DNA of 64,000 bases from Tubulanus polymorphus (Eukaryota > Animalia > Nemertea), in contig NC_134031.1 in the NCBI RefSeq assembly GCF_964204645.1, positions 11,472,088 through 11,536,087 of the forward strand. Direction: 5' to 3'. This document shows positions 36,536-58,739 of this stretch, piece after piece. The translations under genes were made by a program, and so were the position numbers. Position 1 is the stretch's first letter; every line of letters starts with the position of its first letter. The notes below the pieces were generated by a model that worked only from the letters and a program-made list of their open reading frames with translations, had not been told where the DNA came from and did not search any database.

Positions 36536-36536
36536 C

Positions 36537-37137: not shown

Positions 37138-37146
37138 CGTTAGAGT

Positions 37147-37908
37147 TTAACAGAGACACGTCACCCCCGGATTACTACCATTGAGAGCTGCTCCCGATTT
37201 AGCTAGTTGGTCCGCCATCTCATTCCCGTGTACCCCCTGGTGACCCCTGACGTATTTGAAAGATACGGAGACTCGGTTATTCAGACCATCCAGTTGTGTC
37301 CAGAGATCGCGGTTTTTGACGTTTTTCCAGCACCTGGCTTTCCACGTCTTGATCCAATCAGTGATACCGTTTATAACGTATTTCGAGTCGGTGAAGATTT
37401 GCAAGGAGTTAATACCAAGCTGGATGGCCTGATTGAGAGCCACGACGACAGCGGTTAATTCACCTCTGTTGTTGGTAGGTGGATAGACGACGGCACAGGT
37501 GTTTAAGGGACTGTCTGGTCCCCAGTAGACTCCGTAGCCCGCACGAGCCTCGTCTGCACCGTTTCTCAGGCACGAGCCGTCTGTATACACTTCGGGTATA
37601 TGCTCCGGATAGATGTCGAATACGCCAAACGCCTTAGAGCTACAGGGGAATTTTTCTGGGTCGGAGGTGGCGTGCGCGAATATTCCTAAGTAGTGGCATT
37701 TTATGAACGCCTTCGAGTTTTTATGGTTGAGGGATTCGAAAGCGAGATCGAGATAATGGCTGTTTTCGAATTTCGAGATGGCTACTTCAACGATGTTTTC
37801 GTCGGGAGAAGTGATAAGGAAGTAGACCTTCAGTGCATGAAGCCAGTGGTATACGGTGGACGGTACTTGAAAAGTGAGCAATCGACGGTGACCCCATTTA
37901 TGTAGCGT
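37147..37908 (-). CDS. RNase H1 (cellular/metazoan type), probably the C-terminal part of an RT-RNase H polyprotein
   Basis: YTDGS, TNNRGEL, FTDSKYVI..ITDWIKTWK..W, VKNRDLW, VRGH.G..GNEMADQLAK: all D-E-D-D residues and the His loop present. Confidence 0.95.
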   Translation of the reverse strand, partial: TLHKWGHRRLLTFQVPSTVYHWLHALKVYFLITSPDENIVEVAISKFENSHYLDLAFESLNHKNSKAFIKCHYLGIFAHATSDPEKFPCSSKAFGVFDIYPEHIPEVYTDGSCLRNGADEARAGYGVYWGPDSPLNTCAVVYPPTNNRGELTAVVVALNQAIQLGINSLQIFTDSKYVINGITDWIKTWKARCWKNVKNRDLWTQLDGLNNRVSVSFKYVRGHQGVHGNEMADQLAKSGAALNGSNPGVTCLC

Positions 37909-39391: not shown

Positions 39392-39464
39392 TTCTGACCA
39401 CGCAGAATCTATATCCACCTTGGTGAGTGAACCAGGACTCTCACGAGACGCGCTTCACCTGGTG

Positions 39465-40019
39465 TGTTGGCCGGGCCTGGCCATGTCCAAGGGACATGAC
39501 TCTGGTTGCCTGCCGATGTCTCGGTTGTTTGCCGGCTTCTGCGTCAGCATAGAACTTTCTAGGCTATTTCGCAATCAGTGACAATCAGGTCGCAGCGCAC
39601 CGCTGATAGCGTCAGCTTAAGAGGTGAATTCCAGGTCAGAGCGTTTCACATACTTGTATATACTGTAAATATCTATGTAAATAACACTTTGTTGTAGGTG
39701 CATTATAGCGGTTGGTTTATAGGGGCCGGAGGGGGTTTGCCGGCCCCTTGGCGTGTTTTCCATGGTCCACAGGGGTTGTCTTCTTAGGGTATTTAGGTGG
39801 AGAAAAAGCTTTGAGGGGGTACACGGTACACCGGGGTAAGGATAGGCTGCGCCAGAACCGGGGTCGGGCTGCGCAAGAACCGCGGTCCACAGGGGTTGTC
39901 TTCTTAGGGTATTTAGGTGGAGATAAAGCTTTGAGAGGGTACACGGTATACCGGGGTAAGGATGGGCTGCGCCAGAACCGGGGTCGGGCTGCGCCAGAAC
40001 CGCTATTTTGTATACTACT
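39465..40019. repeat. Mav-2 right TIR (555 bp)
   Basis: Inverted match to 27772-28304. Confidence 0.95.
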
Positions 40020-40219: not shown

Positions 40220-40680
40220 AGTAATAGGGGTAATAGGCTTTCAAGCCAAAGGTCGAACGGTCGAGCTCGTAAAAAATGAAAAACATAAAAATAATTACAA
40301 TTTCTACTTGAATTACTCGCGAAACTCATAAAAATGAAAAATAAATTCTCACACGCTCGAATTTATTTTTCATTTTTATGATTTTCACTCCTAATTCAAG
40401 TAGAAATTGTAATTATTTTTATGTTTTTCATTTTTACTCACCCGCCCGTTCAACCTTTAGCTTGAAAGCCTATTACCCCTATTACTCTTAAAATATTCAT
40501 ATATATGAATAACATTTAAATCATTGAACTTCTAAAATCAATTTTAATAAAAAATATAGTATTAAAATGGAAGCAAATAAGTACTACTGCCCAACATGTA
40601 ATATCGATATAGATAAGTCCCAAAAAGCAAGACACAATAAAACTAAAACACATTTAGAGAATAAATTGAAACTAGAGTAT
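40220..40680. repeat. Mav-3 left TIR; 40220-40486 is an imperfect fold-back palindrome
   Basis: Essentially identical inverted copy at 58279-58739. Confidence 0.97.
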
Positions 40681-43600
40681 AAAGATGATATATTAGAAAC
40701 TAAATTAGATGAATTAAAGAATGAAAAAGAAACATACAAATGTGATATATGTAATCAATCATTCAGTGATAAAAGATATTATAAAGAACATTTAAAATCT
40801 ATAAGTCATATTAGAAATAAGAATAATGATATTATAGGTGAAGATTATTTTGATAATGATAACGATAAGAAACAAAGCGCAATTAAAAGAATAAAAAATA
40901 AATTAAACAATAAAAGACCATACATGGAAGATGTAAGAAATTATATTAATTCATTAGATAATAAAAAAGATATAGAGATAACCGAAGCATTTAAAAGTGA
41001 TATTGGTCCAGCAGCTATCGAGTTTAAATTTCATAAAGGAAAAACAAGAAAATAAAAAACATTTAGAAAATATGAAAGAAATAATAAAAATAATTACAAA
41101 CGTAGAATATCCAAAAATTAGTATATCAGTTAAAGTAAAGTTTATAAAATCTGAAGATAAACCAATATATAATATAAATTCTCATTCACAACATATTATA
41201 TCTAAACAACATATAGATGATAAATTAAATAAATGTTATAATGAAATAAAAACTAAAACAGAAGAGAAATATTTTGAAGGATCTGGTTTAATATTTGATG
41301 AGATAATATTTATAACTTTACATGTTTATAACACAAAATATAATAAGTTAAGTAAATCAAAACCAATTGATGAAAATAATTTATCATATTATAAAGATGA
41401 TAGTATAAATGGAACAAGTTATATTAAACTACCATTTAAAACTAATGGTGTAATAAATATACAAAATTTTGATAATAAATGTTTTATATGGGCTATAATA
41501 AGTTGTTTACACCCAGTTGAAGATTATAAACAACATAGTTTTAGATTAACTCATTATAAACAATTTGAAAATAATTATAAGATAGATAAGTATCCTGTTA
41601 GAATTAAAAATATTCCAAAAATAGAAAGAGATAATAATATAAAGATAAATGTATTTGATTTAATCAAATTACCAAATACAAAAGGAAATAATATTAAACA
41701 TTATACATTAGAACCTTTATACCTATCAAAAGATTATGATTCACATGATGTTATAGATATACTATATTATGAGAATCATTATATGTGGATTAAACAAATA
41801 GATTTATTTTTTAGAACAGAAAGTGATCACCATAATAAAATATATCTATGTAGAAAATGTTTACATAAATTTAGTAATGAAAGTACATTATTAAATCATA
41901 AACAACTATGTGATAATCATGATTATTGTAAATTAGTTTTACCAAATGAAAAGGATAAAATATTAGAATTCAAAAAATATGATTACAAAAATAAAGTACC
42001 ATTTGTAATATATGGAGATTTTGAATCATTAAATAAAGAATTAACAGATAAAGATAGAAAAGATATATATTATAAAAGAAAGAAATTAAATTCTAATGAA
42101 AGTGATTATTCAGATGAACCACCAATAACAAATACTATTAAAAAGATTCATCAATCAGCTGCAGCTTTCGGGTTATATATTAAATCTGATTATCCAGAAC
42201 TAATTGAAAGTGAATATTATAATTATAGAAATGAAAATGTTATCAATCATTTTTGTGACTTATTAATTGAATATGAAATAAGATTTAGTAAATTATTGAA
42301 TACAAATATAGAAATTATAATGACAGAAGAAGATAAAGAAGTATTTGCGTTTGCAGATAAATGTTATTATTGTGAAAAGATATTTAATTATAAAGATAAA
42401 AAAGTAAGAGACCATGATCATTTGAATGGAAAGTTTAGAGGCGCTGCACATGAGAATTGTAACTTACAAGCTAAGAAAATTAACTTTATACCAGTTATAT
42501 TTCATAATCTATCAGGATATGATGCACATTTATTTATCAAACAGCTATGTTATAAAATAGAAGAAATTAATAATGAAATAGAAAGATTAAATTCAAATAG
42601 ATCAAAAGATAAAATACCAACTTATAAATCTAAAATGTTAGCTAAAACATCTGAGAATTATATATCATTCCAAATTGGTTGTCTAAGATTTATAGATTCA
42701 TATAGATTTTTAAGTAGTTCATTAGATAACTTATCAAAATCATTAGTTGATGATGAATTAAAGATATTAAAAGAATATTACCCAAATAATGATGATTTTA
42801 AATTAATGAGATATAAAGGAGCAATTCCATATTCTTTCTATAAAAATCATAATGATTTTAAAATAACTGAATTATTGAAAGAACAATTCTATGATGAATT
42901 AAAAAATGAATATGTTAAAGATGAAGTATATAATAGAACATTGAATATTTGGAATCATTTCAAAATAGAAAATCACGGGCAATTAGTAGATTTATATTTA
43001 AAATCAGATGTATTATTATTAACTGATATATTCGAAAGGTTTAGAGATGTAAACCTAAAATATTTTAACATTGATCCTTGTCATTGTTATTCATCACCAG
43101 GATTAACATGGGATTGTGGTTTAAAATTTACAGATATAAAAATGGATTTGTTAACAAATATAGATCAATTATTATTATTTGAAAAATCTATAAGAGGAGG
43201 TGTTTCAGGTGTATTGGGTGATAGATATTTCAATGTAAATGATAATCCTGGATATAAATTATTATACATAGATGCAAATAATCTTTATGGTAGGGCAATG
43301 ATGGAACCACAACCTTATGGGATGTTTGAAATAACTGAAGTTTTACAAATTGATAAATTTGATTGGAAGAAAAGAATCCTAGATATTGCAGATGATTCAG
43401 ATATTGGTTACTTCTTCGTTGTAGATTTAGAATACCCTGAAAATATCAAATTCAAATCTAGAAATCTAGCATATTGTCCCGAACATAAAACTGTTAAACA
43501 TGAAGAATTATCAAATTATCAAAAAAGAATTAAACCCGATAATCATATTCATACAGAAAAGTTAATGGAACCTCAAGAAGATAAATATAATTATGTAGTA

Positions 43601-44596
43601 CATTATAGAATGTTGAAGTTTTATTTGAGACAAGGAATGATATTAAAAAAAGTACATAGATATATTTCATTCAGTCAATCTAAATGGTTAGAAAAATATA
43701 TAGATTTTGATACTACACAGAGAACTAAATCTAAAACTGATTTTGAAAAAGATTTTTTTAAGTTAATGAATAATGCATTCTATGGAAAAACTTGTGAAAA
43801 CATAAGAAATAGAAATGATATTGAGTTAGTTAGTAATGGTAAAAGGATAAGGTATTTACAATCATATCCTAAGTTTATAGGTAACAGAATATTTGATGAA
43901 AATTTAGCAGCAGTTAATATGAGAAGAACATCAATGAAATTTAATAAACCAATTTATGTTGGAGCTGCAGATTTAGAAATTTCAAAGCTATTGATGTATG
44001 AATTCTATTATAATGTATTACAACCTCATTTTGGAGAAAAACATATAGAAATCTTATATTTTGATACTGACAGTTACATATTAAAGATAAAAACTGATAA
44101 CATAACAGATGATTTAAAAACATTAAAACACCATTTTGATTTTAGTAATTATCCAAAAAATCATGAATTGTTTAGCAATGATAATAAAAAAGTTCCTGGG
44201 AAGTTTAAGGATGAATTAGGTGGTGAAGAAATGATAGAGTTCATTGGTATTAGATCTAAAATGTATTCATATAAAACTAAAGAACATGAAGCTAAAAAGT
44301 TAAAAGGAATAACCAAAAGCGTTGTTGAAAAGAATATTCATTTTAAAGATTACATCAATTGTATATTTAATGAAGAAGTTAGAAAACATAAGATGAAATG
44401 TTTAAGATCTGAAGATCATGAAATGTATATTGAAGAGATAGAGAAGATAAGTCTAAACCCATTTGATGATAAAAGATATATTTTAGATGATGGAATCCAC
44501 ACAGTCGCCTATGGTTGCAATTTAGATGAATATATAAAATTCAAAAGAGAAGAAACAAAAGAAAATGAGATTATGAAAAGGATTCTAGCGTGTTAA
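40567..44596 (+). CDS. pPolB: Mav-3 protein-primed DNA polymerase B with N-terminal C2H2 fingers and endonuclease VII-like insert; 4-bp deletion after 41046 splits it into ORFs 40567-41055 and 40997-44596
   Basis: YGDFES, FHNLSGYD, YLKSDV, YIDANNLYG, KLMNNAFYGK, YFDTDS; Mav-1 and Mav-4 read KGKTLEENKK through the break. Confidence 0.97.
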
Positions 44597-44624
44597 TCAA
44601 TTTCAATAAAAATTTGTATAATAA

Positions 44625-44966
44625 ATGGAGAGTAAACAAGTACACAGTGAATTCTTAGAAAGAATTAAAGATATAACAAATGTAAAATCTGTAGATTATA
44701 AATTCAAAAAGTTAACAGAATTAACAATCCATAAGAAATATCTAATTACAAATATTGTTACAGTTACTAATAACTATGGAGATAAATTAGTAATTCATTT
44801 AGAATATGAAGGATTAAAAGGAAATAAATATAAATTCAGAACTTATTTACCAGATAGATTTCATAGATTATCAAGTGAAGATCTAGAAGAATTATATTCT
44901 GGTGATTTCTATTTCATATATAAAGGTAAGAATGAAAAAGGGCACCATGAAATAGATTTCGAATAA
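44625..44966 (+). CDS. Hypothetical 113-aa protein (possible OB-fold)
   Basis: Intact ORF with TAAATG start; conserved in the Mav-1 TIR. Confidence 0.7.
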   Translation: MESKQVHSEFLERIKDITNVKSVDYKFKKLTELTIHKKYLITNIVTVTNNYGDKLVIHLEYEGLKGNKYKFRTYLPDRFHRLSSEDLEELYSGDFYFIYKGKNEKGHHEIDFE

Positions 44967-44983
44967 GAAAATATGTAAAATAA

Positions 44984-45739
44984 ATGGTAGAATTAAAAGA
45001 ATACAGAATATTTGTAGATTCTAGAAAACTTACAAATTATAAATCTCATAATTTACTAATACAATTAGATAGAGAATTCAAGAATTGTGTAGATTTAAAA
45101 TTAGTTAATATAAGTTTATGTAATTCTTTTCATAATATATCGAATAAAAGTCTTAATCATTTAGCTTTTAAAATTTATGTTAGAAATTTGAATAAATGGT
45201 TTCATCTTTATCTAAAACCAGGATTATATAATTTAGAAACATTAGCGCAAGAAATTAATAAAAGAGCTCGTTTAAAAATGGGCTCAGCTGCTCGATTTGA
45301 AATTAAATTCATCAAAAGTGATAGTTCGAATAAAATAAGAATAAAGTTAACTAATGAACAACATAGATTTCTAGTAAGAAAACCTTTAGCTAAACTGTTT
45401 GGAATTCTTCCGGATAGACATTATTCAAATATTGATACTTATACAAATATAATACCTTTTACACACTTTTATATTTATTGCAATCTAATCGATCCTACAA
45501 AAACATTTGAAGCAACTAAAGATACAACATGTAATTCTAGTATATTAAATATTTTACCATTAAAAAATGTTAAACAATTTGGAACGCAAATAAATTATAA
45601 TTTAGCTGAATGTGATTTCAAACCTTGTATTCCTCAATTTAATAATTTTAAATTAGAAATAAGAAATCATAATGGATACTTAATTGATTTGAATAACTTT
45701 CCTGTAATTTATGAATTAGTTATAAGATGTAAAGAGTAA
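44984..45739 (+). CDS. Mav-3 minor capsid (penton-like) protein
   Basis: VDSR, PGLYNLETL, LFG, YIYCNLI, EIRNHNG..IDLN pattern typical of Maverick mCP. Confidence 0.75.
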   Translation: MVELKEYRIFVDSRKLTNYKSHNLLIQLDREFKNCVDLKLVNISLCNSFHNISNKSLNHLAFKIYVRNLNKWFHLYLKPGLYNLETLAQEINKRARLKMGSAARFEIKFIKSDSSNKIRIKLTNEQHRFLVRKPLAKLFGILPDRHYSNIDTYTNIIPFTHFYIYCNLIDPTKTFEATKDTTCNSSILNILPLKNVKQFGTQINYNLAECDFKPCIPQFNNFKLEIRNHNGYLIDLNNFPVIYELVIRCKE

Positions 45740-45755
45740 TTTTTCACCTATATAA

Positions 45756-46115
45756 ATTAATATAACTGTTGGACCGAGTATATGTTTTGGATTTGATTTT
45801 AAACGTGAGAAAGAAATGAAATTTAACATGAATGATGTAATTACACACATCAAAAATATTGCATTTTCTAATGAAACAACATTTGAGTATGAAACAACAA
45901 TAAATATAGAAACTTTAAATGTAGAAAAGATTACTAATTTAATTAGAGAATCTTTAAGATTTTATGAATTAGATGAAGATTTTATCATATATGATATTAA
46001 AAACATATTAACCAAAATATATGATAATCATAAAACTAGTAATAAAATAAATGTTGAATTAATCATAAATAAGTTAACTAAATATTTTGATGATAGTAAT
46101 TTTTTTGATAAATAA
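45756..46115 (+). CDS. Hypothetical protein; ancestral ATG mutated (TAAATT), ORF now starts at 45816
   Basis: Mav-1 copy 23195-23527 begins TAAATG-NITVGPSICFGFDFK. Confidence 0.65.
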   Translation: MNITVGPSICFGFDFKREKEMKFNMNDVITHIKNIAFSNETTFEYETTINIETLNVEKITNLIRESLRFYELDEDFIIYDIKNILTKIYDNHKTSNKINVELIINKLTKYFDDSNFFDK

Positions 46116-46337
46116 ATGAGTGATAATAAGTGGATAATAACTGGATTATATAATGGCGCATTACTATCAGTTGGAACGGTTGGTTATTCAATGGTATTAA
46201 AAAAAGTATTCAAAATGGGAAGTGTTAATGTTGATAGATTTGATATAAATGATATTTTAAAGTTAACATTAGCAGTTACTTTATCTAATTTAACTATTGA
46301 TTATTTGGAAAAACAAAAATATATTCCTCCCATATAA
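46116..46337 (+). CDS. Small hydrophobic conserved protein (73 aa)
   Basis: Homologous to 33081-33320. Confidence 0.8.
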   Translation: MSDNKWIITGLYNGALLSVGTVGYSMVLKKVFKMGSVNVDRFDINDILKLTLAVTLSNLTIDYLEKQKYIPPI

Positions 46338-46361
46338 ATGCATAATTTTTTTGCTAAATAA

Positions 46362-46784
46362 ATGGCTTCTGCAATTATAACTATTATAGGATCGGCAATT
46401 GTTAACGCTTTAGCATTTACTGGTGGTGGATATTTATTTAAACATATTGATAAAAATAGTTCATTAGGAGAACAAAGAAGACATAACTTAGCGTTAGAGA
46501 AATACAATAAAGCTGCAGAAGAATATAGAGAAAAGAGGCAAAACTATATGGATTACATCAATAAAGAATTATATGATCAGAAGATTTCACATAGAGATTT
46601 TCAATCAGTTGATGATGCAATGAGTTTATATAACGCAGTAACAAATAAAGAAAAATTACATCTATACAAACCTAAATTATCAGATTATTATACCCCAAGT
46701 AAAGAACAACAGAAATATGAAATAATATGGATTTTAGGTGGAACTGTTATTGTTATATTTGTTGCTTATAAGTTTACTAATTAG
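46362..46784 (+). CDS. Conserved protein with hydrophobic ends (140 aa)
   Basis: Homologous to 33331-33740 and 22525-22940. Confidence 0.82.
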   Translation: MASAIITIIGSAIVNALAFTGGGYLFKHIDKNSSLGEQRRHNLALEKYNKAAEEYREKRQNYMDYINKELYDQKISHRDFQSVDDAMSLYNAVTNKEKLHLYKPKLSDYYTPSKEQQKYEIIWILGGTVIVIFVAYKFTN

Positions 46785-46803
46785 TAATTTTTATTCTAAA
46801 TAA

Positions 46804-47238
46804 ATGGAAGATAAAGTTGATAGTATTGATATTATTCATCATGATATAAATAAAACTAAATTAAAAACATATTTAGAAAAACAAATATTAGAATTTGAAA
46901 GTGACTTAAAGATAAAAAAGAAAAAATATTTAAAAAGTAAAATTATATATTATTTGATTATAAGTGGTTCGGTTACAATTAGTTCTGTAATAACATTTTT
47001 AGCAATATTCAGCCCATTAACACCTTTAGCTATGTCAATTGGTGTATTAGGATTAAGTTCAAGTGTTTTAACCGGTATAAGTTCAAAATTAAATATAAAA
47101 AGTATGAAAGAAAAAATAAAATCTAATATAAAAGAAATTAATAAATTAAAGAACACACTAGATTATATAATAAGTTTAAATGGTCATATAACAGTTGAAG
47201 AACAAGATAAATTATTAAAAGAATTAATAAATTATTAA
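46804..47238 (+). CDS. Hydrophobic-hairpin membrane protein (144 aa)
   Basis: KKKY followed by two hydrophobic segments. Confidence 0.8.
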   Translation: MEDKVDSIDIIHHDINKTKLKTYLEKQILEFESDLKIKKKKYLKSKIIYYLIISGSVTISSVITFLAIFSPLTPLAMSIGVLGLSSSVLTGISSKLNIKSMKEKIKSNIKEINKLKNTLDYIISLNGHITVEEQDKLLKELINY

Positions 47239-47255
47239 TTTTTTTAATTATATAA

Positions 47256-48647
47256 ATGGTAGATAGTTTTCCAAAAGCTTTCCAATATAATAAATCAATT
47301 AAATATAATATTCCAGCAATAGATTTTAATAAAGATATTACATATAGAAATGAAGTTTTAGATTCATTAACTAATTTAGAAATTTATGTTACTGAAACTA
47401 ATAATTTTAATGCAAAGATGGAAAATATATTTCATATATATTTAATTAATTTTAAAAAATTGAAAGATGAAAAACAATGGTTATTAAAATCTAATATGAA
47501 GTATTGGCAGATTCAATTAAATTTTGCTGTTTATTGTGCAACAACAGGATGTGGAATTAGTTGGAATGATCATTTGAATAATTCTAAATATAAATTAATT
47601 CAAAGTTTATTTAGATTTCATACATACTTTCAAATCAGAATAATATTAAATGAATTAGAGTGCGCTTTACCAGGATCTAGGTATTTCAAAGAATTAGATA
47701 ATAATATTAATTTATCTAAGTTTTATAAGATTTGCAATGAATTTAATATAGATATAAATAATTCTGATTTTAGAACAAAAATTGGAACAATAAGATCACT
47801 TCCATGCCCTAGAAAGATTGCAGAATATTGTGCACTTCCCATACCATCTAATAGTTTTTATAATATCTATAATAATAAATTAGGTTATGGTAAAATAGAA
47901 ACTAAGGATTTAGAAACATTAAATTTCAATAAATTGCCGAAATTTTATGATCATTTAAAACAAGAAAACAATAATGGTTGGGTTTATTTTATTTTAGAAA
48001 ATAGTGAAGGTTTTACTAAATCAGGTATAGAAAGAATAAATCAATCTATTAGAACTTATTTAATTTGTATTTTAGGTGCGCAAGTTGAAACAAGATCACC
48101 GATAATTGGAAATTTGAATACATCATTCGATACACAAAAACAGTTTAAAGTTTTATTTGAAGATTCCATACATAATGATAAAAATAGATCGATTCCAGAA
48201 AACATTATAAGATATCAAAATTATTTAGATAAATCTCATGTAAGACTTAATTATTGTATAGGCCCTAATCTATTAATTATTTCTAATGATTTAGTATTGA
48301 AGATGGGAAATATAATTGGTTATAATAATCTAATTAAAACTGCGACAATAAATAATTCATTTGGGTTAAATGATATAAATAAAAAGATTATCACTGCTCC
48401 AAAATTAATGGAAGGTGAAAAAAATAAAAAACATATTCAATCAACAGAAACTAAAACTAAGAATATTAAATTAAATAATGATTCTAAAATAAAAGATTAC
48501 AATACATCAGAAAATAATAGAACTGATATTATTCAACATGATATAATTAAACTAAATGATGATAATAAATCCCATGAAAATACTAAATTAGCTATAACTT
48601 GTATAGGAATTGTAATCGGAGGAATATTTAATTTTTTTATTATGTAA
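47256..48647 (+). CDS. Hypothetical 463-aa protein with C-terminal TM anchor
   Basis: Long intact ORF; decayed homologue at 20797-22061. Confidence 0.8.
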   Translation: MVDSFPKAFQYNKSIKYNIPAIDFNKDITYRNEVLDSLTNLEIYVTETNNFNAKMENIFHIYLINFKKLKDEKQWLLKSNMKYWQIQLNFAVYCATTGCGISWNDHLNNSKYKLIQSLFRFHTYFQIRIILNELECALPGSRYFKELDNNINLSKFYKICNEFNIDINNSDFRTKIGTIRSLPCPRKIAEYCALPIPSNSFYNIYNNKLGYGKIETKDLETLNFNKLPKFYDHLKQENNNGWVYFILENSEGFTKSGIERINQSIRTYLICILGAQVETRSPIIGNLNTSFDTQKQFKVLFEDSIHNDKNRSIPENIIRYQNYLDKSHVRLNYCIGPNLLIISNDLVLKMGNIIGYNNLIKTATINNSFGLNDINKKIITAPKLMEGEKNKKHIQSTETKTKNIKLNNDSKIKDYNTSENNRTDIIQHDIIKLNDDNKSHENTKLAITCIGIVIGGIFNFFIM

Positions 48648-50120
48648 ATGGATGTAGAAGGTGGAGAAGATTATGAAATGGGAGAAATGGGAAATAATAA
48701 TGAAGGATATATTGATGATGATTATAATGATGCAGAAACTAATATTGATAATGATGATGAATCAGCATATAATTCTAATTTAGCAGATAGTGGTTCTAAA
48801 GCCCCATCAACAGATGAATTTGATAGAAGAACTAGATCGAGAATAAATCCTGAAAATGAAAATCAAGGTTTATCAAGACAAAATTTAGAAAATATTGAAT
48901 TTATGTATGATTTTCAACGTGTATTTAAAGATTCTGGATATAATATAAATGCCAGAGGCGCCAGACTTTTAGTAAAAGAATTAAAATCTTTAGATGGTGA
49001 ATATTATTATCATTTGAAAGATGATTATTATATTGATATCTCTTATAAAAAAGGAGAAAAAATATTAGCAAAATCAACTTTGCTTAAGTCTGACTCATTA
49101 CTATCTAGAATTAAAAGAATAAGTAATAGTAATGAAATAGAAGATGTAACACAAGAAGAAATTATTAAAAATGAAAGAGTATTTAAACAAAGAATTAATA
49201 AATTATTTGAAACAATCAAAGATAATCCAGAAACAGAAACAACTTCTGAACAGAATATAACTTCCAAAACTAGTAAACTTAAATCAAACACTGAAGTTCA
49301 AACTGAAAAACTTTTACCGAATGGATTACTTGATGCAACAGATCAAGAAATAGAAGCTTTAAGTATGTTTTCTAAAAAAACAATTAGAGAAATAATAAGT
49401 ATACGAAATGATGCCGATAAAATTGCGCGCGAAAAACATATTAGATATAATAAAATTAAACCTTTAGAAAATAAATTATTTGACACCAGAAAAGAATTAG
49501 AACAATTAAAATTAGATAGAGAATTTAAAGTTATTGAAGAAATTGAATTTAAAAAAAGAAATGCATATTTAGAAAAAGAAATTGATGATTTAGAATATAA
49601 CATAGAATTTCAGAAAGAAAAAATGAAATTATTATTAAAATCATACGATTATTGTATCAATAGATTAAAAGTTGTTGTTAAAGAGTTAATACTAAAACCA
49701 AATTCTGACATATCACTAAAAGATAGAATAAAATTATTATTTAAGTTTGAAGGAATAACAGTTCTTTCAATTCTAACAGCTGTAACTATGTTATTTACAA
49801 CAATTGGTTTAGCAATATCAAATGCTTTAAAATCTACTCCTACTCCCACTCCCAATAAACCAGATAAACCTCCAGGCAATAATTCTATACAAGATAAAGT
49901 TAAAGATGGTTTAAAGAAATTAGCAAAATATTTATGGGAACTATCTAAAAAATCTGCTGCAGCATTGCCAGGAGTTATTGCATCAATTGTTGGTTTTATA
50001 TTGAAATCTGCAGGAAACATTATTAACTTTGCTGCTGAACATATTATTTTATTTTTAATTACAGTTGTAAGTGCTATTATTTTTGGTTTAGTAAATATGA
50101 TATCAAAAAATATCAAGTAA
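48648..50120 (+). CDS. Coiled-coil protein with hydrophobic C-terminus (candidate membrane-active virion protein)
   Basis: C-terminal third conserved in Mav-1 and Mav-2. Confidence 0.8.
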   Translation: MDVEGGEDYEMGEMGNNNEGYIDDDYNDAETNIDNDDESAYNSNLADSGSKAPSTDEFDRRTRSRINPENENQGLSRQNLENIEFMYDFQRVFKDSGYNINARGARLLVKELKSLDGEYYYHLKDDYYIDISYKKGEKILAKSTLLKSDSLLSRIKRISNSNEIEDVTQEEIIKNERVFKQRINKLFETIKDNPETETTSEQNITSKTSKLKSNTEVQTEKLLPNGLLDATDQEIEALSMFSKKTIREIISIRNDADKIAREKHIRYNKIKPLENKLFDTRKELEQLKLDREFKVIEEIEFKKRNAYLEKEIDDLEYNIEFQKEKMKLLLKSYDYCINRLKVVVKELILKPNSDISLKDRIKLLFKFEGITVLSILTAVTMLFTTIGLAISNALKSTPTPTPNKPDKPPGNNSIQDKVKDGLKKLAKYLWELSKKSAAALPGVIASIVGFILKSAGNIINFAAEHIILFLITVVSAIIFGLVNMISKNIK

Positions 50121-50160
50121 ACCATGATTAAAAATAAATAATTAATTTTTTGTTAAATAA

Positions 50161-51408
50161 ATGAGTGGGAGTTATATCAATCCTTCTAAGAATCATAGAA
50201 TATCTAATGCTATTAAAGCAGAAAGATCACATCATATAATTACTCATAACCCTTCAAATATTAATCCCGATGAAACTTTATACGTTAGAATCCCTCGATT
50301 AACACAAAATACTTTTTATGTTCCAAATAGTATTTATTTATCAGCCGATATAAAAGTAATCGGTAATAATAATAATTATGTCGTTGATAATGTTGGAAGA
50401 TATTTGATTAAAAAGTTAACAATAAAGATTGGTCCAGAAACAGTTTTCTCATTAGATGATTATAATTTATTTTCACATTATAAAGATTTATGGTTAACTA
50501 AAGAAAATAGAAATAATATGATATTTCAAGGAATTCAATCAGAAAACCAAAATAAATTAAGATCAGAAGCTAATAGCGCAATATTAACTAATGATGTAGA
50601 TAAATTGATAAAAAGTATATATGGAAGCAAATATAAAATTCCATTGGACTTTGAATTGATAAATAATAATGCACCTTTATATAAATACGCAATTCAAGAA
50701 GATATTATATTTGAGATAACATTTGCTCCTGTAAATGAAATTGTATTATCTAGCGTTAATAAAGATATGAGTTATAAATTATCGAATATATGTTTAGAAT
50801 ATGATACCGTAACTGATGAAAATATTTCAAGTATAATTCAAACTCAATACAATCAAGGGTTTTCATTATTATATGATTATATTGATAAATTTAAAACTGT
50901 AACTATTAATGCAAATGATGAAATAATTAATGAGAATATTAACTTTCCTAGAAGATCTATTAAAGGTATATTAATATTTTTTACCATTGGAACGTATACT
51001 AATGGCGCAATAAATGTTGATAATTATTATAATCCTGAAATAACAAAAGTAGAAATAACTATCGAAGGAATAGCAAATAAAATATTTTGTCAAGGAATGA
51101 GAATGATTGATCAATGGCCAGAAATTAGAAAACATTTTATGAATGAAAAAATAAAATCATCTGAAGATTGTAACATTAATCAAATTGATTATTATACCGG
51201 TAATAAATATGCATTATGGTTAGATTTTAGAACAACAGAGGATAATTCATTACATGGTTCTGGGAAAAAACTACAGAACACTAAAGATGGAATACAATTA
51301 TTCATGACAAAGAAAAAGGGAATCAAAAATTTTAAAATGCACATTTATATTATATCTGACGCGCAATTAAATATTGTAAATTCACAATTAGATAGTGTTA
51401 TGTATTAA
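50161..51408 (+). CDS. Mav-3 major capsid protein
   Basis: Intact 415 aa, strongly conserved with the GC-rich Mav-2 ORF; size and context of Maverick MCP. Confidence 0.87.
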   Translation: MSGSYINPSKNHRISNAIKAERSHHIITHNPSNINPDETLYVRIPRLTQNTFYVPNSIYLSADIKVIGNNNNYVVDNVGRYLIKKLTIKIGPETVFSLDDYNLFSHYKDLWLTKENRNNMIFQGIQSENQNKLRSEANSAILTNDVDKLIKSIYGSKYKIPLDFELINNNAPLYKYAIQEDIIFEITFAPVNEIVLSSVNKDMSYKLSNICLEYDTVTDENISSIIQTQYNQGFSLLYDYIDKFKTVTINANDEIINENINFPRRSIKGILIFFTIGTYTNGAINVDNYYNPEITKVEITIEGIANKIFCQGMRMIDQWPEIRKHFMNEKIKSSEDCNINQIDYYTGNKYALWLDFRTTEDNSLHGSGKKLQNTKDGIQLFMTKKKGIKNFKMHIYIISDAQLNIVNSQLDSVMY

Positions 51409-51440
51409 AATTTTAACTTTAATAAAAATTTATTATATAA

Positions 51441-52504
51441 ATGGAAGGAGGTAAAGTATATGAAAGAATCAAAGCTGATAAAGAAATCAATGATGATTTG
51501 TATTATGTAATACCTTATAAAAGAATAAATGAATATATTGGAACATTTTTATTAAATGAATTAAATCAATACAAAGAATATTTAATTGAACGTAATAATA
51601 ATATTGATATAAAAATAGAAGATAATATTGAAACAAAAATAGAAGATAATATTAAAACAAAAATAGATAATAATATTGAAACAAAAATAGAAGATAATGT
51701 TATACCTTCTACATCGAATGATGATAAGATTGAAACAAAAATAGAACATAATATTGAACCTAAAATAGAAAAATCAAATGTTCAACCAAAAGATAACATC
51801 AGATGTATGTATTGTGAAGAAGATTTTGATAATAATAATGATTATTTATTACACATAAAAAAAGATGAACATATTTTACAATTAGTAAAAACATATGCCA
51901 ATATATATAAAGATAAATGCAAAGAGGATCAGAATTATTGTGCCTTCTGTAATGAATGTATAACAAAGGCTAATTGGGCAAAACATTATAAATTAAAAAC
52001 AAAAGGTGGAAATGATTCAGCCCATGCAATACAAGTATTTAAATCTTGGTGTGAAAAATGTAAAGAATATGTAATATATGATAAACAATTGAATCATACT
52101 CAATTAAACATATTGGTACAGATAATGTAATAGAAAATCCAACAGTTATAAATCCAAAATTTAATAATAAGAATATATTAGATTATCGGTGGTATAGAAA
52201 AACATTTATAGATTATTTATTGAGTAATGATATAGTTACCATATTGAAAAAGTTAGATAACTTTAAACCAAATGTAACTTATGCAATGAACTTATTTGAA
52301 CTTAAATATGATGATTTTAGAGAATTTTTAAATAAACATCCATCTAAAACTGAAATCGAAAATTATATTCCAAAAATATTTTCAAGAAAAACATTCAATA
52401 AATATAAACTCGGGAATCATTCAGGAATTATATCAAAGAAAATGCAAAGGGATATATATTTAGAATACAATAAGCTTAAAGAAAAATATGAAAATGAAAA
52501 TTAA
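51441..52504 (+). pseudogene. Zinc-finger protein with IETKIEDN repeats; apparent 4-bp deletion near 52097 splits it into ORFs 51441-52130 and 52220-52504
   Basis: CMYC..H..H, CAFC, CEKC; frame upstream of 52220 is open back to KHIGTDNV; Mav-1 reads NHKYSI*HIGT. Confidence 0.7.
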
Positions 52505-52509
52505 AAAGA

Positions 52510-52874
52510 TTATAGAATTCACTGTATATTGATGGATGAATGGATGAGTTGGATGAGTTGGATGAGTGGAAGAGTGGAAGAGTGTAATAATATATATATT
52601 TTACTTTTTAACACATAAATTGGAAGAATAGTATGAGTATAAATATAATATTTATATTCTTTATTAAATTTAACACAATATATATATTATTAAAATAATA
52701 TTTAAATATAATATAAAATTGATAAAATAACTTCAAATCAAACTCTTACTGTTTTAAAAATAAAAAACATATGTAAATTATATATTATTACACTCATCCA
52801 TTCATCCACTCTTCCAATTCATCCAATTCATCCAATTCATCCACTCATCCATCAATATACAGTGAATTCTATAA
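52510..52874. repeat. Inverted repeat (~85-95-bp arms built of 9-bp TGGATGAGT-type units) between convergent gene blocks
   Basis: TATAGAATTCACTGTATATTGATGGATGA...GAGTGTAATAATATA versus its reverse complement at ~52780-52874. Confidence 0.9.
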
Positions 52875-52891
52875 TATTTTGAATTAGGATT

Positions 52892-53506
52892 TTATTTTAT
52901 AAATTTATATTCATATGGAAATTGTAATCTCATTAATAATTTTGAACCTTTATTATTCTTTAATTTATTCATATATTCATCATGTAATTCAGTAGGTATA
53001 ATTTGATTTTCTTCCAATGATTGTTGCATAGATTTTCTATCTTTGTTGTAGAATAAAACTAGAAATCTTATATTCTCTCTAAAATCTTTCACAATTGAAT
53101 TATATTTCTGATTTAAAACCCAAGTTGTTATCCCAAAATGTCTCCCAGAGAAAGCTAAATAACATAACTCACTTTCTCTAATTTTAGAATCATGTAAATT
53201 TGCGCAATCATCGATAATAAATAATGTATTAGATCCTTTATAAATATCTAATGCAATTTTTATACAATTATCTAAATTATCTTTCACTGTTTTAGAATTT
53301 AATATAATAAACTTTTTATCTTTAAAAACTATATCTCTATTATACGTTTTATTCATTTCATAAGTAGGACAGAATAATATTATATTATCAAAATGATTTT
53401 TATAAATAGTTTCTAATAAATATAATATGAAGTGTGTTTTACCACAATTTGTAACTCCAGTAACTAACATATTATGTGGTTCAAATATAAACAAATCTTT
53501 ATTCAT
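52892..53506 (-). CDS. Mav-3 A32/FtsK-like packaging ATPase
   Basis: GVTNCGKT, LFIIDD, SGRH. Confidence 0.96.
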   Translation of the reverse strand: MNKDLFIFEPHNMLVTGVTNCGKTHFILYLLETIYKNHFDNIILFCPTYEMNKTYNRDIVFKDKKFIILNSKTVKDNLDNCIKIALDIYKGSNTLFIIDDCANLHDSKIRESELCYLAFSGRHFGITTWVLNQKYNSIVKDFRENIRFLVLFYNKDRKSMQQSLEENQIIPTELHDEYMNKLKNNKGSKLLMRLQFPYEYKFIK

Positions 53507-54599
53507 TTATTCTTTTAATTTTACTAGATAAAATCCATTCATTAAATTTATCATCATATCCTTTATATTTCACCAAAGAATACTTTTTTCCTTTAAGAGT
53601 TTTTGTTTTCAATACTTTTTCTATTTTGTATTCTATTTCATCTGGATTTGGTACAAGTGATAATTCTTGTTCATAGAAATAACCTAATATTTCTTCATCT
53701 TTTAAATTTTCTAATTTATAAACAAATGGTTTAGTTAATATTATCTTTTTAATCTTGAATATTTCTTCAGTAAAATTGGGGGTATAACCTTTATAAAATG
53801 TTTTTCGATATTTAGAAATTCTAACATGTTGTCCTATTTTAAATTTCGGTTCTCCAAAATCATGTGTAACAAATGCTCCATATAAATTATTCCAAACTAT
53901 TTCTGAATTTTCTTCTTTTCTAGCTTGTATAGGTTTCATATTTATAGAACTATGTTTAGAATTATTATAACCTTTAACTAAATCATCTAACATATTTATA
54001 GACTCATCGATATATTTATATGTTTCATTAGCGGTGAAATATTTCCACATTCTAGTTTTCAATGTTTTATTAAATCTTTCTATAACAGATGCTTTTTTAT
54101 CTGAATGTGTTGAAAAATATTCTACATCGTTATCAGTTAATAGTTTTTTAAAATGTTTGTTATAAAATTCTTTACCTTCATCAAATTGTATTTTATCTGG
54201 GATAGCTTCTTTAAATATTAATTTGAAAGAATTTGTAACTTCTATACCAGTTTTATTTTTAATCGGGATACTCCATGCGTATCTACTGAATATATCTATA
54301 ACATTTAGTATCCAAAAATATCCTTTGTTATATTCTTCTAAGTTCTTCATGTCAATTAAATCTGCTTGCCATTGTTGATCGATATATGAAACCATTACTT
54401 TTCTTGTTAAATATTTTTTATCCATCTTTTTATGAATTTGATATGTGGGTTGATTTTTTAACCATGATTTTAATTCACTATATTTTATTTTTTCTTTATC
54501 AGATTTAATTTTATCCCATAATTCCGAAACACTTGAATATGAAACTTCACTTTCTGGGTTATAATATAAATCTCTTAAATATTGTTCTTTTTTCATCAT
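53499..54599 (-). CDS. Mav-3 retroviral-type (DDE) integrase with C-terminal chromodomain
   Basis: WQADLIDM, IQFDEGKEF, IERFNKTLK; YKIEKVL...VKYKGYDDKFNEWI. Confidence 0.97.
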   Translation of the reverse strand: MMKKEQYLRDLYYNPESEVSYSSVSELWDKIKSDKEKIKYSELKSWLKNQPTYQIHKKMDKKYLTRKVMVSYIDQQWQADLIDMKNLEEYNKGYFWILNVIDIFSRYAWSIPIKNKTGIEVTNSFKLIFKEAIPDKIQFDEGKEFYNKHFKKLLTDNDVEYFSTHSDKKASVIERFNKTLKTRMWKYFTANETYKYIDESINMLDDLVKGYNNSKHSSINMKPIQARKEENSEIVWNNLYGAFVTHDFGEPKFKIGQHVRISKYRKTFYKGYTPNFTEEIFKIKKIILTKPFVYKLENLKDEEILGYFYEQELSLVPNPDEIEYKIEKVLKTKTLKGKKYSLVKYKGYDDKFNEWILSSKIKRINE

Positions 54600-54602
54600 A
54601 TT

Positions 54603-54971
54603 TTAATCCATTAATAATATTTTAGATTTATTTTCATTTGATTTATGATTTGACTTATTTTCGGGTATGATAGGTTTATCATCATTGGAATCATCTTTAT
54701 CATCAGATTTGAATTTTGATTTATATATTACACCGGAGAATATAATAATTGTGATTAACCCAATTGTAATATATAAGTAATTATTTCTTCCACTATTAGA
54801 AGAATCAGATGGATTATTATTTGAATTAATATCAGATAATTTCTGTGATTCATTTATATCAGTTAATTTCTTTTTCTTAGCTTTTTTTAATTCTGATGAT
54901 CTTTTACCTAATTCTCTTGCCCATTTAATTTGTTTCTCGGATCTAGCCTTTTTCTCAACGCTATCACTCAT
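54603..54971 (-). CDS. Small basic single-TM protein (122 aa)
   Basis: Homologues in Mav-1 and Mav-2. Confidence 0.8.
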   Translation of the reverse strand: MSDSVEKKARSEKQIKWARELGKRSSELKKAKKKKLTDINESQKLSDINSNNNPSDSSNSGRNNYLYITIGLITIIIFSGVIYKSKFKSDDKDDSNDDKPIIPENKSNHKSNENKSKILLMD

Positions 54972-55566
54972 TTATTTTAGTTAATTTTTGTTCTGATTCA
55001 TTTTCTGTTTCGCGGTTTGGTTGTAGTACATCTGTTTCGTTCTTACCTGATTTATATTCCATAGGTTTGATGTTCGAAAATGTTATGACGCCAGTAGAAA
55101 TTAATGTCATAACCGATCCTAATTGAAATGAAGCATAACCGACCCATTTTTGTAATTCAGTCATAACTAAGTAGTCATTTTTCAAATCACTATATAATTT
55201 ATTTTCATCATCAATTGGTATTAACTGGTTACATAATTTTGAATAACATTTGACAATACCATTCGAAATAGAATCATTTATTCTAGCTAATCTTGACTCT
55301 TCATAAATCTTAAAATATTTGATTACTTTATCTGGTTTCATAGCATCTAGTTCTTGAAAAGTAATGATTCTATTTAAAAACTCCTTAGATTTCCCGCCAG
55401 CAATTAATAATTCAAGATGATGCTTACAATATAAATAGTATTCATAATCTATATTGTTATTAACTTGAATAGAATTAGAAACAACTGTATCTTTATTATC
55501 ACTAATACCTAAATCATCTAATGTCTTTTCAATATCAATATTATTCTTACTCGATTTCTTTGACAT
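54964..55566 (-). CDS. Conserved Maverick protein (200 aa)
   Basis: Homologues in Mav-1 and Mav-2. Confidence 0.8.
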   Translation of the reverse strand: MSKKSSKNNIDIEKTLDDLGISDNKDTVVSNSIQVNNNIDYEYYLYCKHHLELLIAGGKSKEFLNRIITFQELDAMKPDKVIKYFKIYEESRLARINDSISNGIVKCYSKLCNQLIPIDDENKLYSDLKNDYLVMTELQKWVGYASFQLGSVMTLISTGVITFSNIKPMEYKSGKNETDVLQPNRETENESEQKLTKINE

Positions 55567-55977
55567 TTATATTAGAGGAAAAAAGCAAAAAAAATATTAT
55601 AAGTATTCTTCAAATGATACTAGTATCTCTTTAGGTTAATACTAAATTGACTAGGTTAGTTAAAGTTAAAGAATTTCTATTCAAATCTATTCAAAATCTA
55701 TTCAATCTAATGTCAATTAGAATTACCAAAAGAAAATATTGAAAATATAATAGAATTCACTAGCTAGTTGAAGTTATTGTTTTTTTATTATATTTTATTT
55801 AAATTAGGATTTAATATCTCACTACTATTGTCTATCTATTAGGAGCAGTAATTATAACTGTCCAGATAAGTCATTTCGGATCCTCGATAATAAATCCTCA
55901 AACTGAAAATAAATTCAAAGAAACGACTGGTGGAAATATTATTTCATAAACACATATATTTATTATACAAATTTTAG

Positions 55978-56178
55978 CGATCAATAATAGAACAATGGAG
56001 AACAATAGAAATGCGGTCCAATCGGACCGGTTATTGCGCAATACACAGTTAACAGTAAACAATCAATACGGAGCAACCGCCGCCATTAACAACGATCAAT
56101 AATAGAACAATGGAGAACAATAGAAATGCGGTCCAATCGGACCGGTTATTGCGCAATACACAGTTAACAGTAAACAAT
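55978..56178. repeat. Direct repeat of an ~86-bp unit (period 115) rich in metazoan TF-site consensus sequences
   Basis: Copies at 55978-56063 and 56093-56178. Confidence 0.9.
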
Positions 56179-56249
56179 ACAATATTAAAACAGATATATA
56201 CAATCGAGATTACATTTTTGATATCTAAGACCTCCTTCAGTATTATGAT

Positions 56250-56978
56250 TTATAATTTTGTCCAGAATTCTTTAATTACTGGATTGTTTCCAATCATTTC
56301 TTCAATTTCTGGTAAATGTCTTACTACTTCACTAAATGCTAATCCTAATATTTTGAATTTTTCATATTTTATTAATCTACCTACTCTTCTCAGTTTTCTT
56401 TCAAAACCGGCACTGATATCTATGTTCTTTTTAACCCACAGTCCCCAAGAAATCCCCTCAGTTTCTTTATCAAACATTGAAAACCCTATATTTAGATAAC
56501 CCCCGAAAATGATGTGGTCCCATAGGTGATTTGCTTTTCTATTTAATATGGTTTTATAACTTTTTTTTAAGATATCAGTAATTTCAGCAAATGAAATAAC
56601 TTCTACACTTTGTATTTCCGGAAAGTTTAAATGTTCTGTGTCAATGATTAATTTAGATTTTAAAAACTCGTTCAACTCTTCTCCACTCATTTTCTTAGTT
56701 TTCGATTCTTTGAGCCCCAACAGCAATTTGAGTCGCGTTGCTGGTAATTTTGGTAATTGTAGTTCGCGCGGTAATTGTTTATTATATATTACATCACTCA
56801 GAATTTTCACCATTTCTTGATGATAGTCCAAATGTTCTTGTAATTTTTGTGAAGTTTGTTCGTCAATTACGAGAGTTTCATCCACCATTTCTATTGATTC
56901 CTGAGTTTCACTATCCAGTAGCAATCGTTCCTCATCCGTTGGTTGGCTTAGAATTTCTGGTTGATCTTTGTGTTCCAT
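56250..56978 (-). CDS. Hypothetical 242-aa protein preceded by a predicted 5'-UTR intron (57072-56985)
   Basis: Intact ORF, less AT-rich than neighbours; GTAAGT...TTTTAG ends 6 nt before the ATG. Confidence 0.75.
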   Translation of the reverse strand: MEHKDQPEILSQPTDEERLLLDSETQESIEMVDETLVIDEQTSQKLQEHLDYHQEMVKILSDVIYNKQLPRELQLPKLPATRLKLLLGLKESKTKKMSGEELNEFLKSKLIIDTEHLNFPEIQSVEVISFAEITDILKKSYKTILNRKANHLWDHIIFGGYLNIGFSMFDKETEGISWGLWVKKNIDISAGFERKLRRVGRLIKYEKFKILGLAFSEVVRHLPEIEEMIGNNPVIKEFWTKL

Positions 56979-57399
56979 TTTAATCTAAAAGATATCGTGA
57001 AAATGAATTACTGTACTTTAATATGTTTAAAGGTTTCCCTACTTCATAATAACTACAAAAAACGGTACTTACATTTAGATTTAGAACTGTAAACTGTGTT
57101 TTGAGAGAGAATATCCAATACGTACTATGTATGTGAAAGTTGATTTCTAACTGCCGACGTGGCGCACGTTCGACCAAACTAATTACTTCTGCATGTTTGC
57201 CTGGATTGTAACAGATGTTCCTTTGTGATGTAATTGATTAATCCTTTTCAACTGAAATAGCACATTCGATCAATATTCAAATGAGGTGCGCCCCATTCAA
57301 CTGAATATGAAATACGGCACAGATGTTTTTGTAAACAACCTAATACAATTAAATATAGGCGGTTTGACATAGATCGAGAGTAACCGGTTTTCTAAGCAC

Positions 57400-58050
57400 T
57401 TAAGCTTCAACGTATTTTTCATTATGTGTTGAATTCCATAATTCAACAAATGTCTTTGCTTTATCCAGTTTATCTAAATATAACTGTATATCTAGTTTAT
57501 TAGATTTAATTATATTTTCTTTCTTTTCAAGAGGCCTTAAATTTCTCCAACCCCAAATAAGTTTTTTATTGTATTCATCATTCATGTCAAATTTAGAAAT
57601 CGGCAACACATGATCAATATGAAAGTATTCACCATAATTATCTATATTCATTTTATCGTCGAATTGATATATTATCCATGATTTTAAGAATTCATCTGAA
57701 CAACCCAATAAATTAGATAGTGTTTTTGAATGCGTTTCTTTGTTGAATAATTGTGTTAATCTAGATCTTAAACACTGTTTCAATCTAAAATTAAGATCTG
57801 TTTGATATCTTTCTCTCATATATTCTGCCATATAATAATTATAATGTTCTATATTATCTTCTCGGTATTGTTTGGTGTATAGTTTAAAACAAGTTTTACA
57901 GCAATATTGAAAACCATCTTTGCTAATCTTACGCTTACTAAATTCTGTTAATGATTTATCTAATTCACATTTAGAACACTTCTTGTAGTATATGTTTATA
58001 ACGCCAGTGTTATTTGTAATATTGATAATTTGTGGTTGTTCTGGTTCCAT
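57400..58050 (-). CDS. Zinc-ribbon plus HNH endonuclease-like protein
   Basis: CSKC...CKTC; HIDHVLPIS...NLRPL...EN. Confidence 0.8.
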   Translation of the reverse strand: MEPEQPQIINITNNTGVINIYYKKCSKCELDKSLTEFSKRKISKDGFQYCCKTCFKLYTKQYREDNIEHYNYYMAEYMRERYQTDLNFRLKQCLRSRLTQLFNKETHSKTLSNLLGCSDEFLKSWIIYQFDDKMNIDNYGEYFHIDHVLPISKFDMNDEYNKKLIWGWRNLRPLEKKENIIKSNKLDIQLYLDKLDKAKTFVELWNSTHNEKYVEA

Positions 58051-58140
58051 TTATTATACGTATTTTTTTACTAAATTGGTTAATAATTTTAGAATCCTCT
58101 TCCATTTCTTCGACCAACGTCATCTTCATTTTCGTCTTTT

Positions 58141-58392
58141 TCATTCCTCGCTGCTTTTGATAAGTTGTTTCGATTCCTTGATATCAAATTCCTCAACGTA
58201 TTGTTCATTATTTGGATCATTATTCCATAATTCAATAAATTTCTTTGCTTTTGTTAACTGTTCTGAATATAACTGTAAATATTCTAGTTTCAATTTATTC
58301 TCTAAATGTGTTTTAGTTTTATTGTGTCTTGCTTTTTGGGACTTATCTATATCGATATTACATGTTGGGCAGTAGTACTTATTTGCTTCCAT
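58141..58392 (-). pseudogene. Chimeric ORF: TIR copy of the pPolB N-terminal finger plus a remnant resembling the HNH protein C-terminus
   Basis: First 38 aa identical to 40567 ORF; QLYSEQLTKAKKFIELWN resembles QLYLDKLDKAKTFVELWN. Confidence 0.7.
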
Positions 58393-58739
58393 TTTAATAC
58401 TATATTTTTTATTAAAATTGATTTTAGAAGTTCAATGATTTAAATGTTATTCATATATATGAATATTTTAAGAGTAATAGGGGTAATAGGCTTTCAAGCT
58501 AAAGGTTGAACGGGCGGGTGAGTAAAAATGAAAAACATAAAAATAATTACAATTTCTACTTGAATTAGGAGTGAAAATCATAAAAATGAAAAATAAATTC
58601 GAGCGTGTGAGAATTTATTTTTCATTTTTATGAGTTTCGCGAGTAATTCAAGTAGAAATTGTAATTATTTTTATGTTTTTCATTTTTTACGAGCTCGACC
58701 GTTCGACCTTTGGCTTGAAAGCCTATTACCCCTATTACT
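58279..58739. repeat. Mav-3 right TIR
   Basis: Inverted copy of 40220-40680. Confidence 0.97.

Follow-up and report, generated by a model that had tools for sequence, protein, structure and literature searches.

Mav-3, a young and AT-rich Maverick/Polinton of the nemertean Tubulanus polymorphus, bears at nearly all of its gene starts a conserved signal that resembles the late promoters of poxviruses: a run of T or A, a T at position −12 and the hexamer TAAATG overlapping the start codon. The element was analysed within a 64-kb stretch of DNA (the window) that also holds the decayed Mav-1, the GC-rich Mav-2, and two extra polymerase fragments. Besides about twelve other proteins, Mav-3 codes for a protein-primed DNA polymerase (pPolB), an rve integrase, an A32 ATPase, and a capsid protein (Table 1). 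The poxvirus-late-like architecture had been proposed in a first-pass annotation from the letters alone and now has good support from its conservation, from controls, and from consensus descriptions in the literature.

TAAATG was found at all 13 positions where it had been noted, in each case overlapping the ATG of an open reading frame (ORF) of 73–490 aa. In a check set beforehand, TAA preceded 13 of the 19 listed Mav-3 ORF starts, among which two lie inside broken genes and one repeats the polymerase start within a terminal inverted repeat (TIR), versus 46 of the 714 other ATGs on both strands of the element (p = 3e-11). Because in-frame internal ATGs cannot follow TAA, out-of-frame and antisense ATGs form the fair background; given AA at −2/−1, T at −3 was still enriched (13/17 starts versus 46/139, p = 9e-4). 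A run of at least four T or A within −22 to −7 was present at 13/13 start sites and at 12/46 TAAATG hexamers elsewhere, a run of at least five T at 7/13 and 1/46, respectively. The T-run proposed ahead of the hexamer holds for about half of the sites, the others having an A-run that ends in T at −12. The exceptions named earlier were reproduced: the starts of pPolB (40567) and of a 242-aa gene predicted to be spliced read TAAAATG, and the integrase has TAAAAT followed by ATG, so that even these starts bear TAAAAT at or next to the ATG. The pPolB motif sits behind an A-run core and corresponds to TAAATG in the related metagenome locus L001. Mav-1 had been said to keep the same starts; TAAATG stands there at 11 orthologous starts, among them that of the gene following the 251-aa gene, whose start codon is broken in Mav-3. 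In one further Mav-1 gene the start is broken but TAAAT survives, and another start is missing through truncation.

A capsid search yielded five metagenome loci related to Mav-3. In Mav-3, L001, L002, and L004 taken together, TAAATG occurred at 40 of 44 starts judged to be true, including those of the L001 integrase and polymerase; this set left aside L003, which hardly differs from L002, ORFs that begin at an internal methionine of a cut or broken gene, the Mav-3 start that is broken, and the TIR duplicate of the polymerase start. The motif was present at 15/15 starts in L001, 7/7 in L002, and 5/6 in L004, versus 22/389, 11/256, and 8/200 other ATGs, respectively. Four-fold degenerate sites were saturated between Mav-3 and L001 (0.37–0.40 identical, 0.38–0.43 expected), nearly saturated in L002, and less so in L004 (0.48 against 0.37). 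Upstream of Mav-3/L001 gene pairs, identity was 33% at −45 to −21 and 64% in the core at −20 to −10, and TAA was kept in 11/11 pairs. The retention of TAA despite the saturation of four-fold sites indicates that the motif is under selection. T at −12 accompanied 37 of the 40 TAAATG starts versus 34 of 87 non-start hexamers. In L005, TAAAT stands 5 nt ahead of the ATPase ATG, which argues that TAAAT is a unit separate from the start codon. Sequence comparison establishes the T/A-run, the T at −12, and TAAATG as a selected, position-fixed, and family-wide signal.

A reading in which the motif is no promoter at all, but a product of AT bias, stop–start coupling, translation-start context, or an upstream poly(A) signal, draws on an element of 77–80% AT, on AATAAA within approximately 24 of the 40 sites, on three TAAs that end a long upstream ORF, and on very AT-rich controls, in which TAA preceded ATG at 7/27 starts. 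However, 37 of the 40 sites are not stop–start joints, and the motif stands on either side of divergent gene pairs, between which no gene ends (ATGs 19 nt apart in L002 and 72 nt in L001), so that it cannot be an upstream gene's poly(A) signal at those sites. T at −3 is a poor start context in animals and counts against translation context, as the fixed T at −12 and the class-specific cores described below are unlike translation features. An AT-rich virophage-like control locus had the motif at 0/12 starts, and one mechanical rule applied throughout gave 15/209 in 28 unrelated viral loci and 24/26 in L001, L002, and L004. This explanation is therefore very improbable and in large part already refuted. 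TAAATG as a splice acceptor was ruled out, as it lacks AG. The poxvirus early terminator TTTTTNT was depleted in coding regions (15 versus 33.7 expected), but all T and A runs were depleted as well, and the depletion was rejected as specific evidence.

The cores ahead of TAAATG fell into two classes. T-run cores precede the capsid gene and the 73-, 140-, 144-, 463-, 490-, and 200-aa genes, with T at −13, the tenth base upstream of TAAAT, in 18/18 starts. A-run cores mostly precede the genes for the polymerase, a predicted single-strand DNA-binding protein (SSB), the ATPase, the zinc-finger and HNH proteins, the 122-aa protein, and a 251-aa product that, from its sequence features, is the likely minor capsid protein (penton); T at −13 was found in 10 of 22 starts of genes outside the T-run class. 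Core class was retained between orthologues (3 of 5000 shuffles, in which relatedness was not removed). A-run cores (polymerase, SSB, ATPase, zinc-finger, HNH) may mark earlier and T-run cores (capsid, membrane-type) later expression, a weaker inference than the promoter reading itself.

The T-run class has a counterpart in vaccinia, and the A-run class a possible one. Papers are cited here by PMC number or DOI, and statements taken from them refer to the portions of text available. At vaccinia late promoters, TAAAT and a following G overlap the start codon and the tenth base upstream is T (PMC11980589), with a T core 5–7 bp from TAAAT (PMC5294985), and TAAATG is the consensus also used in an entomopoxvirus paper (PMC3061580). 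Intermediate promoters have TAAA, lack the tenth-base T, and have an A/T-rich stretch 15–19 nt upstream (PMC11980589, PMC5294985). The T-run class fits the late layout, and the A-run class fits the intermediate layout except for its spacing.

RNA polymerase, TBP, and capping families were absent from a Pfam scan of 18 Mav-3 proteins. Together with a misfit to RNA polymerase II (Pol II) geometry, the lack of an encoded polymerase makes a pox-type helper polymerase the most likely reader of the signal. Judged from the sequence, we give somewhat better than even chances to a promoter read by the late/intermediate RNA polymerase of a co-infecting helper of poxvirus type, and hence to a virophage-like lifestyle. 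The integrated element would be silent until helper infection, save for one host-transcribed spliced gene. Upon co-infection, the helper's polymerase would read the TAAAT promoters, and the replication and virion genes would be expressed in the cytoplasmic factory, as in mavirus with Cafeteria roenbergensis virus (CroV). Transcription would probably start inside TAAAT, which would give mRNAs without a templated leader and with a 5′ poly(A) head made by slippage.

The 242-aa gene stands apart. Its leader is predicted to contain an intron (GTAAGT at 57072, TTTTAG at 56985, minus strand), and it has A at −3 and the start TAAAATG. Its close homologues are six RefSeq models from Tubulanus polymorphus (73–94% identical). 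Among the genes searched, no other close homologue bore a name, except for a partial capsid record labelled as a bacterium; no Tubulanus polymorphus model was named for the capsid among the best 120 of 924 matches or for the ATPase among 111 matches. The gene is thus likely host-transcribed, and RefSeq models for it alone fit a single host-transcribed gene with the rest silent. The predicted structure of its product was too poor for use (predicted local distance difference test, pLDDT, 37). The noncoding block conserved upstream of the gene (57100–57330, minus strand; 12500–12850 in Mav-1) contains CATCTG boxes, an inverted repeat, and a splice donor that is likewise conserved; in Mav-1, it is followed by a different ORF.

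Such a gene would also suit an autonomous, nuclear element whose motif is read by host Pol II with the help of a factor from the element or the host. In line with this, Mav-3 carries zinc-finger proteins besides the host-type gene, Mav-2 has a weakly VLTF3-like protein, related elements share a bipartite start-proximal layout with different initiators, and TATAAA occurs at 16 of the 40 sites, as scored by the −5 column. However, Pol II starts approximately 25–30 nt from TATA (PMC5294985), and a TATA-like box abutting the ATG would place the start inside the coding region. Moreover, the motif overlaps the ATG, −45 to −21 is not conserved, no TBP was found among the scanned proteins, and the homologues of the 242-aa gene occur in one nemertean only, whereas the motif occurs in all close relatives. 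AATAAA was not depleted in coding regions (193 in 35.5 kb versus 188.8 expected, counted without a host-gene control), which mildly favours cytoplasmic transcription and is a weak point against Pol II. We consider transcription of the motif genes by Pol II unlikely.

A cytoplasmic helper need not be a poxvirus: another large DNA virus, or a polymerase-encoding linear element with a TAAAT-type initiator, could supply the enzyme. The yeast pGKL elements initiate at TAAAN and add 5′ poly(A) by slippage (PMC6211774), bipartite late promoters are common to pox- and asfarviruses (PMC5294985), and no poxvirus was found in the literature for a nemertean host. Against such a helper, TAAATG over the start codon is confined to poxviruses among the late motifs of nucleocytoplasmic large DNA viruses (NCLDV) given in the available text of PMC5294985 and PMC7163114, and four IMG/VR loci from NCLDV-labelled contigs reached at most 2/7 starts. 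This alternative appears quite unlikely.

In Mav-2 the layout differs: a T-rich, AATTTTC-like core is followed after approximately 10 nt by TATAG and, 1–10 nt further, by ATG. TATAG lay within 17 nt before 9/13 starts versus 0/232 other ATGs, and TAA directly before ATG did not occur at these starts. The initiator resembles that of African swine fever virus (ASFV), whose late-gene initiator is TATA and whose late leaders have a median length of 9 nt (PMC7163114). The VLTF3-like gene of Mav-2 (33744–34262) is a weak match below the cut-off (E = 2.8e-4). Mav-2 is also accompanied by a 6-bp target duplication and contains an ORF for a reverse transcriptase (37898–39391).

Several observations weigh against the poxvirus-type helper. 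IMG/VR was scanned twice with promoter patterns, which gave 28 unrelated loci in one case, none in the other, and no helper candidate, and the literature on marine-invertebrate poxviruses contained no poxvirus described from nemerteans; Poxviridae-assigned reads are reported from all phyla with a warning of misclassification (PMC11097642). Initiators of TAAA type also occur in yeast cytoplasmic linear elements (PMC6211774). In four unrelated viral loci with GC up to 23%, TAA directly preceded ATG at 7/27 starts, so that composition supplies part of the signal. The link between core class and function is weak (p = 0.036; 7 versus 8 genes, two unassigned genes left out), and the likely penton and the 122-aa gene run counter to it. 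The A-run lies 10–15 nt upstream of TAAAT versus 15–19 nt in vaccinia intermediate promoters, i.e. approximately 4–5 nt closer, and the vaccinia match was made to verbal consensus descriptions rather than to poxvirus sequences side by side. The lack of RefSeq capsid models can also be explained by repeat masking or unnamed records. Finally, more distant relatives (capsid 33–36%, ATPase 39% identical) share the start-proximal layout but have TAAAA or TATAAAA; given these initiators and that of Mav-2, the layout may be an old trait of the clade that evolves with an element factor. Maverick fragments of this kind in bacterial metagenome-assembled genome records (L006, L007, and L012; likely contamination) have a T-run and TAAAA or TATAAAA just before ATG. 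In L008 and L013, fragments with 55–58% GC, true starts could not be placed.

IMG/VR contained no close relative of Mav-3 by capsid, capsid alignment, or ATPase searches; the ATPase alignment led to one unrelated locus and to two virophage loci that served as a control. A more specific proposal, which we regard as possible but doubtful, is that marine invertebrates harbour an as yet undescribed poxvirus-like virus of which Mav-3 is an endogenous virophage, with intermediate- and late-like promoters and one host-transcribed latency gene, and that Mav-2 is tuned to an asfarvirus-like helper; the start-proximal motifs of animal Mavericks would in that case name their helpers.

Table 1. Mav-3, its genes, and its sibling elements in the window
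Feature	Positions	Strand	Description
Mav-3	40220..58739		Young Maverick/Polinton, ~77% AT, 18.5 kb; 6-bp target-site duplication AGCCGG on both sides
Left TIR of Mav-3	40220..40680	+	461 nt, 99.8% match to right TIR; internal palindromes with four AAAAATGAAAA copies
Right TIR of Mav-3	58279..58739	-	
Mav-1	10221..24900	-	Decayed sibling of Mav-3, ~73-90% DNA identity by block
Mav-2	27772..40019	+	GC-rich relative of Mav-3, capsid 43% identical
pPolB	40567..44596	+	Two ORFs, frame interrupted near 41050; polymerase motifs in sequence
OB-fold SSB (predicted)	44603..44966	+	113 aa; A-run core, TAAATG 44622
251-aa gene	44962..45739	+	A-run core, TAAATG 44981
Gene after 251-aa gene	45740..46115	+	T-run core and TAAAT kept, start codon broken
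73-, 140-, 144-aa genes	46095..47238	+	T-run, TAAATG 46113, 46359, 46801; last two with hydrophobic segments
463- and 490-aa genes	47235..50120	+	T-run, TAAATG 47253, 48645; C-terminal hydrophobic segments
Major capsid protein	50140..51408	+	415 aa; T-run, TAAATG 50158
Zinc-finger-like protein	51418..52130	+	229 aa; A-run core, TAAATG 51438
A32-type packaging ATPase	52892..53530	-	A-run core, TAAATG 53509 within integrase coding end
rve integrase with chromodomain	53499..54620	-	TAAAAT then ATG; TAAATG in L001 and L002
122-aa gene and 200-aa conserved gene	54603..55590	-	122-aa: A-run core, TAAATG 54974 within next coding end; 200-aa: T-run, TAAATG 55569
242-aa gene	56250..57330	-	No TAAATG; predicted 5′ leader intron
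HNH-like protein	57400..58075	-	216 aa; A-run core, TAAATG 58053

In the Pfam scan, the rve and Pox_A32 matches were above the cut-off. The polymerase gave no Pfam polymerase match and was assigned from sequence motifs; its frame, broken in Mav-3, is continuous in two sibling fragments. The 113-aa protein is predicted to be an SSB from a structural model with pLDDT 78, whose best PDB match was PRD1 P12 (E = 5.6e-3) and whose best viral matches had E values of ~1e-4. The double jelly-roll call for the Mav-3 capsid comes from feature look-alikes of low recognition value. The gene at 45740..46115 is intact with TAAATG in Mav-1 and L001, and the TAA of TAAATG 48645 doubles as the stop of the upstream gene. 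The promoters of the ATPase and 122-aa genes (53499–53512 and 54964–54977, minus strand) overlap the last codons of the genes upstream, both of which end in I-N-E-stop. A deoxynucleoside kinase gene in L001 (10343–10981), with T-run and TAAATG, diverges from the polymerase start. No protease family, including the adenovirus-type cysteine protease, was found among the 18 proteins; as far as Pfam sees, Mav-3 would be a protease-less Maverick variant.

The two extra 5′ fragments of a Mav-3-type polymerase gene (112–2199 and 59775–61018) mark the region as a nest of the Mav-3 family. BEL/Pao-like retroelement pieces (DUF1759) lie next to Mav-2 and Mav-3 (26405–27976 and 58742–59443), and degenerate repeats resembling TTAGGG, which may be subtelomeric, and tandem arrays occur at 63480–64000 and 3326–4600. 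Nested palindromes with stems built on AAAAATGAAAA occupy the TIRs (40265–40450 and 58510–58695) and recur at 24740–24800 and 59430–59530. The pox early core AAAANTGAAAA (PMC5294985) occurred in 14 copies versus 1.96 expected, 12 of them in terminal palindromes; as the copies were multiplied by duplication, the excess was demoted from early-promoter evidence to a hint, and the AAAAATGAAAA palindromes matching this core may alternatively be an origin structure.

Animal Mavericks could be viruses in their own right or parasites of large DNA viruses, a question raised in PMC8097293, which also names giant-virus activation as a possibility; neither the available text of that paper nor that of PMC8502044 gives promoter evidence for helper dependence, and promoters are not mentioned in the available text of PMC8502044 or of a 2026 preprint (10.64898/2026.10.13.758929). 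A pox-type promoter would make helper dependence directly and cheaply testable. To our knowledge, neither particles nor triggers are known for most animal Mavericks. A fixed pox-type promoter predicts a pox-like virus in a lophotrochozoan and, if the reading is true, the identity of helpers could be read from genome sequence across animal Mavericks.

Mav-3 combines features of several known systems. With animal Mavericks/adintoviruses (PMC8097293, PMC8502044) it shares TIRs, a 6-bp duplication, pPolB, rve, ATPase, and capsid, but no cysteine protease was found in it by the Pfam scan. Mavirus/EMALE virophages (PMC10945749) are likewise integrated rve/pPolB elements with one late-type motif on nearly all genes. 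Virophages share the late motifs of their helpers, and the endogenous virophage types of Cafeteria bear different motifs, a response to CroV being confined to the type that bears the CroV late motif (PMC10945749). These virophages have a protist host, a Mimiviridae-type helper, a TCTA motif, and a virophage capsid, whereas Mav-3 has an animal host, a Maverick-type capsid, a pox-type motif, and a hypothetical helper. Polinton-like viruses tied to invertebrate poxviruses have been found inside the occlusion bodies of entomopoxviruses (Barth et al. 2024, PMC11296320), one lineage lying near the mavpol2 capsid clade; they infect insects and have a protease and mu-like proteins but no rve, whereas Mav-3 has rve and no detected protease. 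The word promoter is absent from the available text and supplement tables of that study. Like Mav-3, the yeast elements pGKL1/2 are AT-rich, replicate by protein priming, and have a TAAA initiator close to the ATG, but they have their own polymerase and capping enzyme, an early-type upstream sequence, and no capsid or integrase (PMC6211774). Vaccinia shares with Mav-3 TAAAT(G) over the start, a T-rich core in which the tenth base is T, and TAAAATG variants; its intermediate class, with an A-rich core and no such T, is resembled by the A-run class of Mav-3, in which the core lies approximately 4–5 nt closer. In Mav-3, however, the signal sits on an 18.5-kb integrated element without a polymerase. 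A literature search, with subscription journals outside its reach, found no report of a Maverick/Polinton with pox-type TAAATG promoters. Promoter sharing in the manner of virophages is known; what appears to be new, with a helper that is as yet hypothetical, is a conserved pox-type promoter signature on a family of animal Mavericks.

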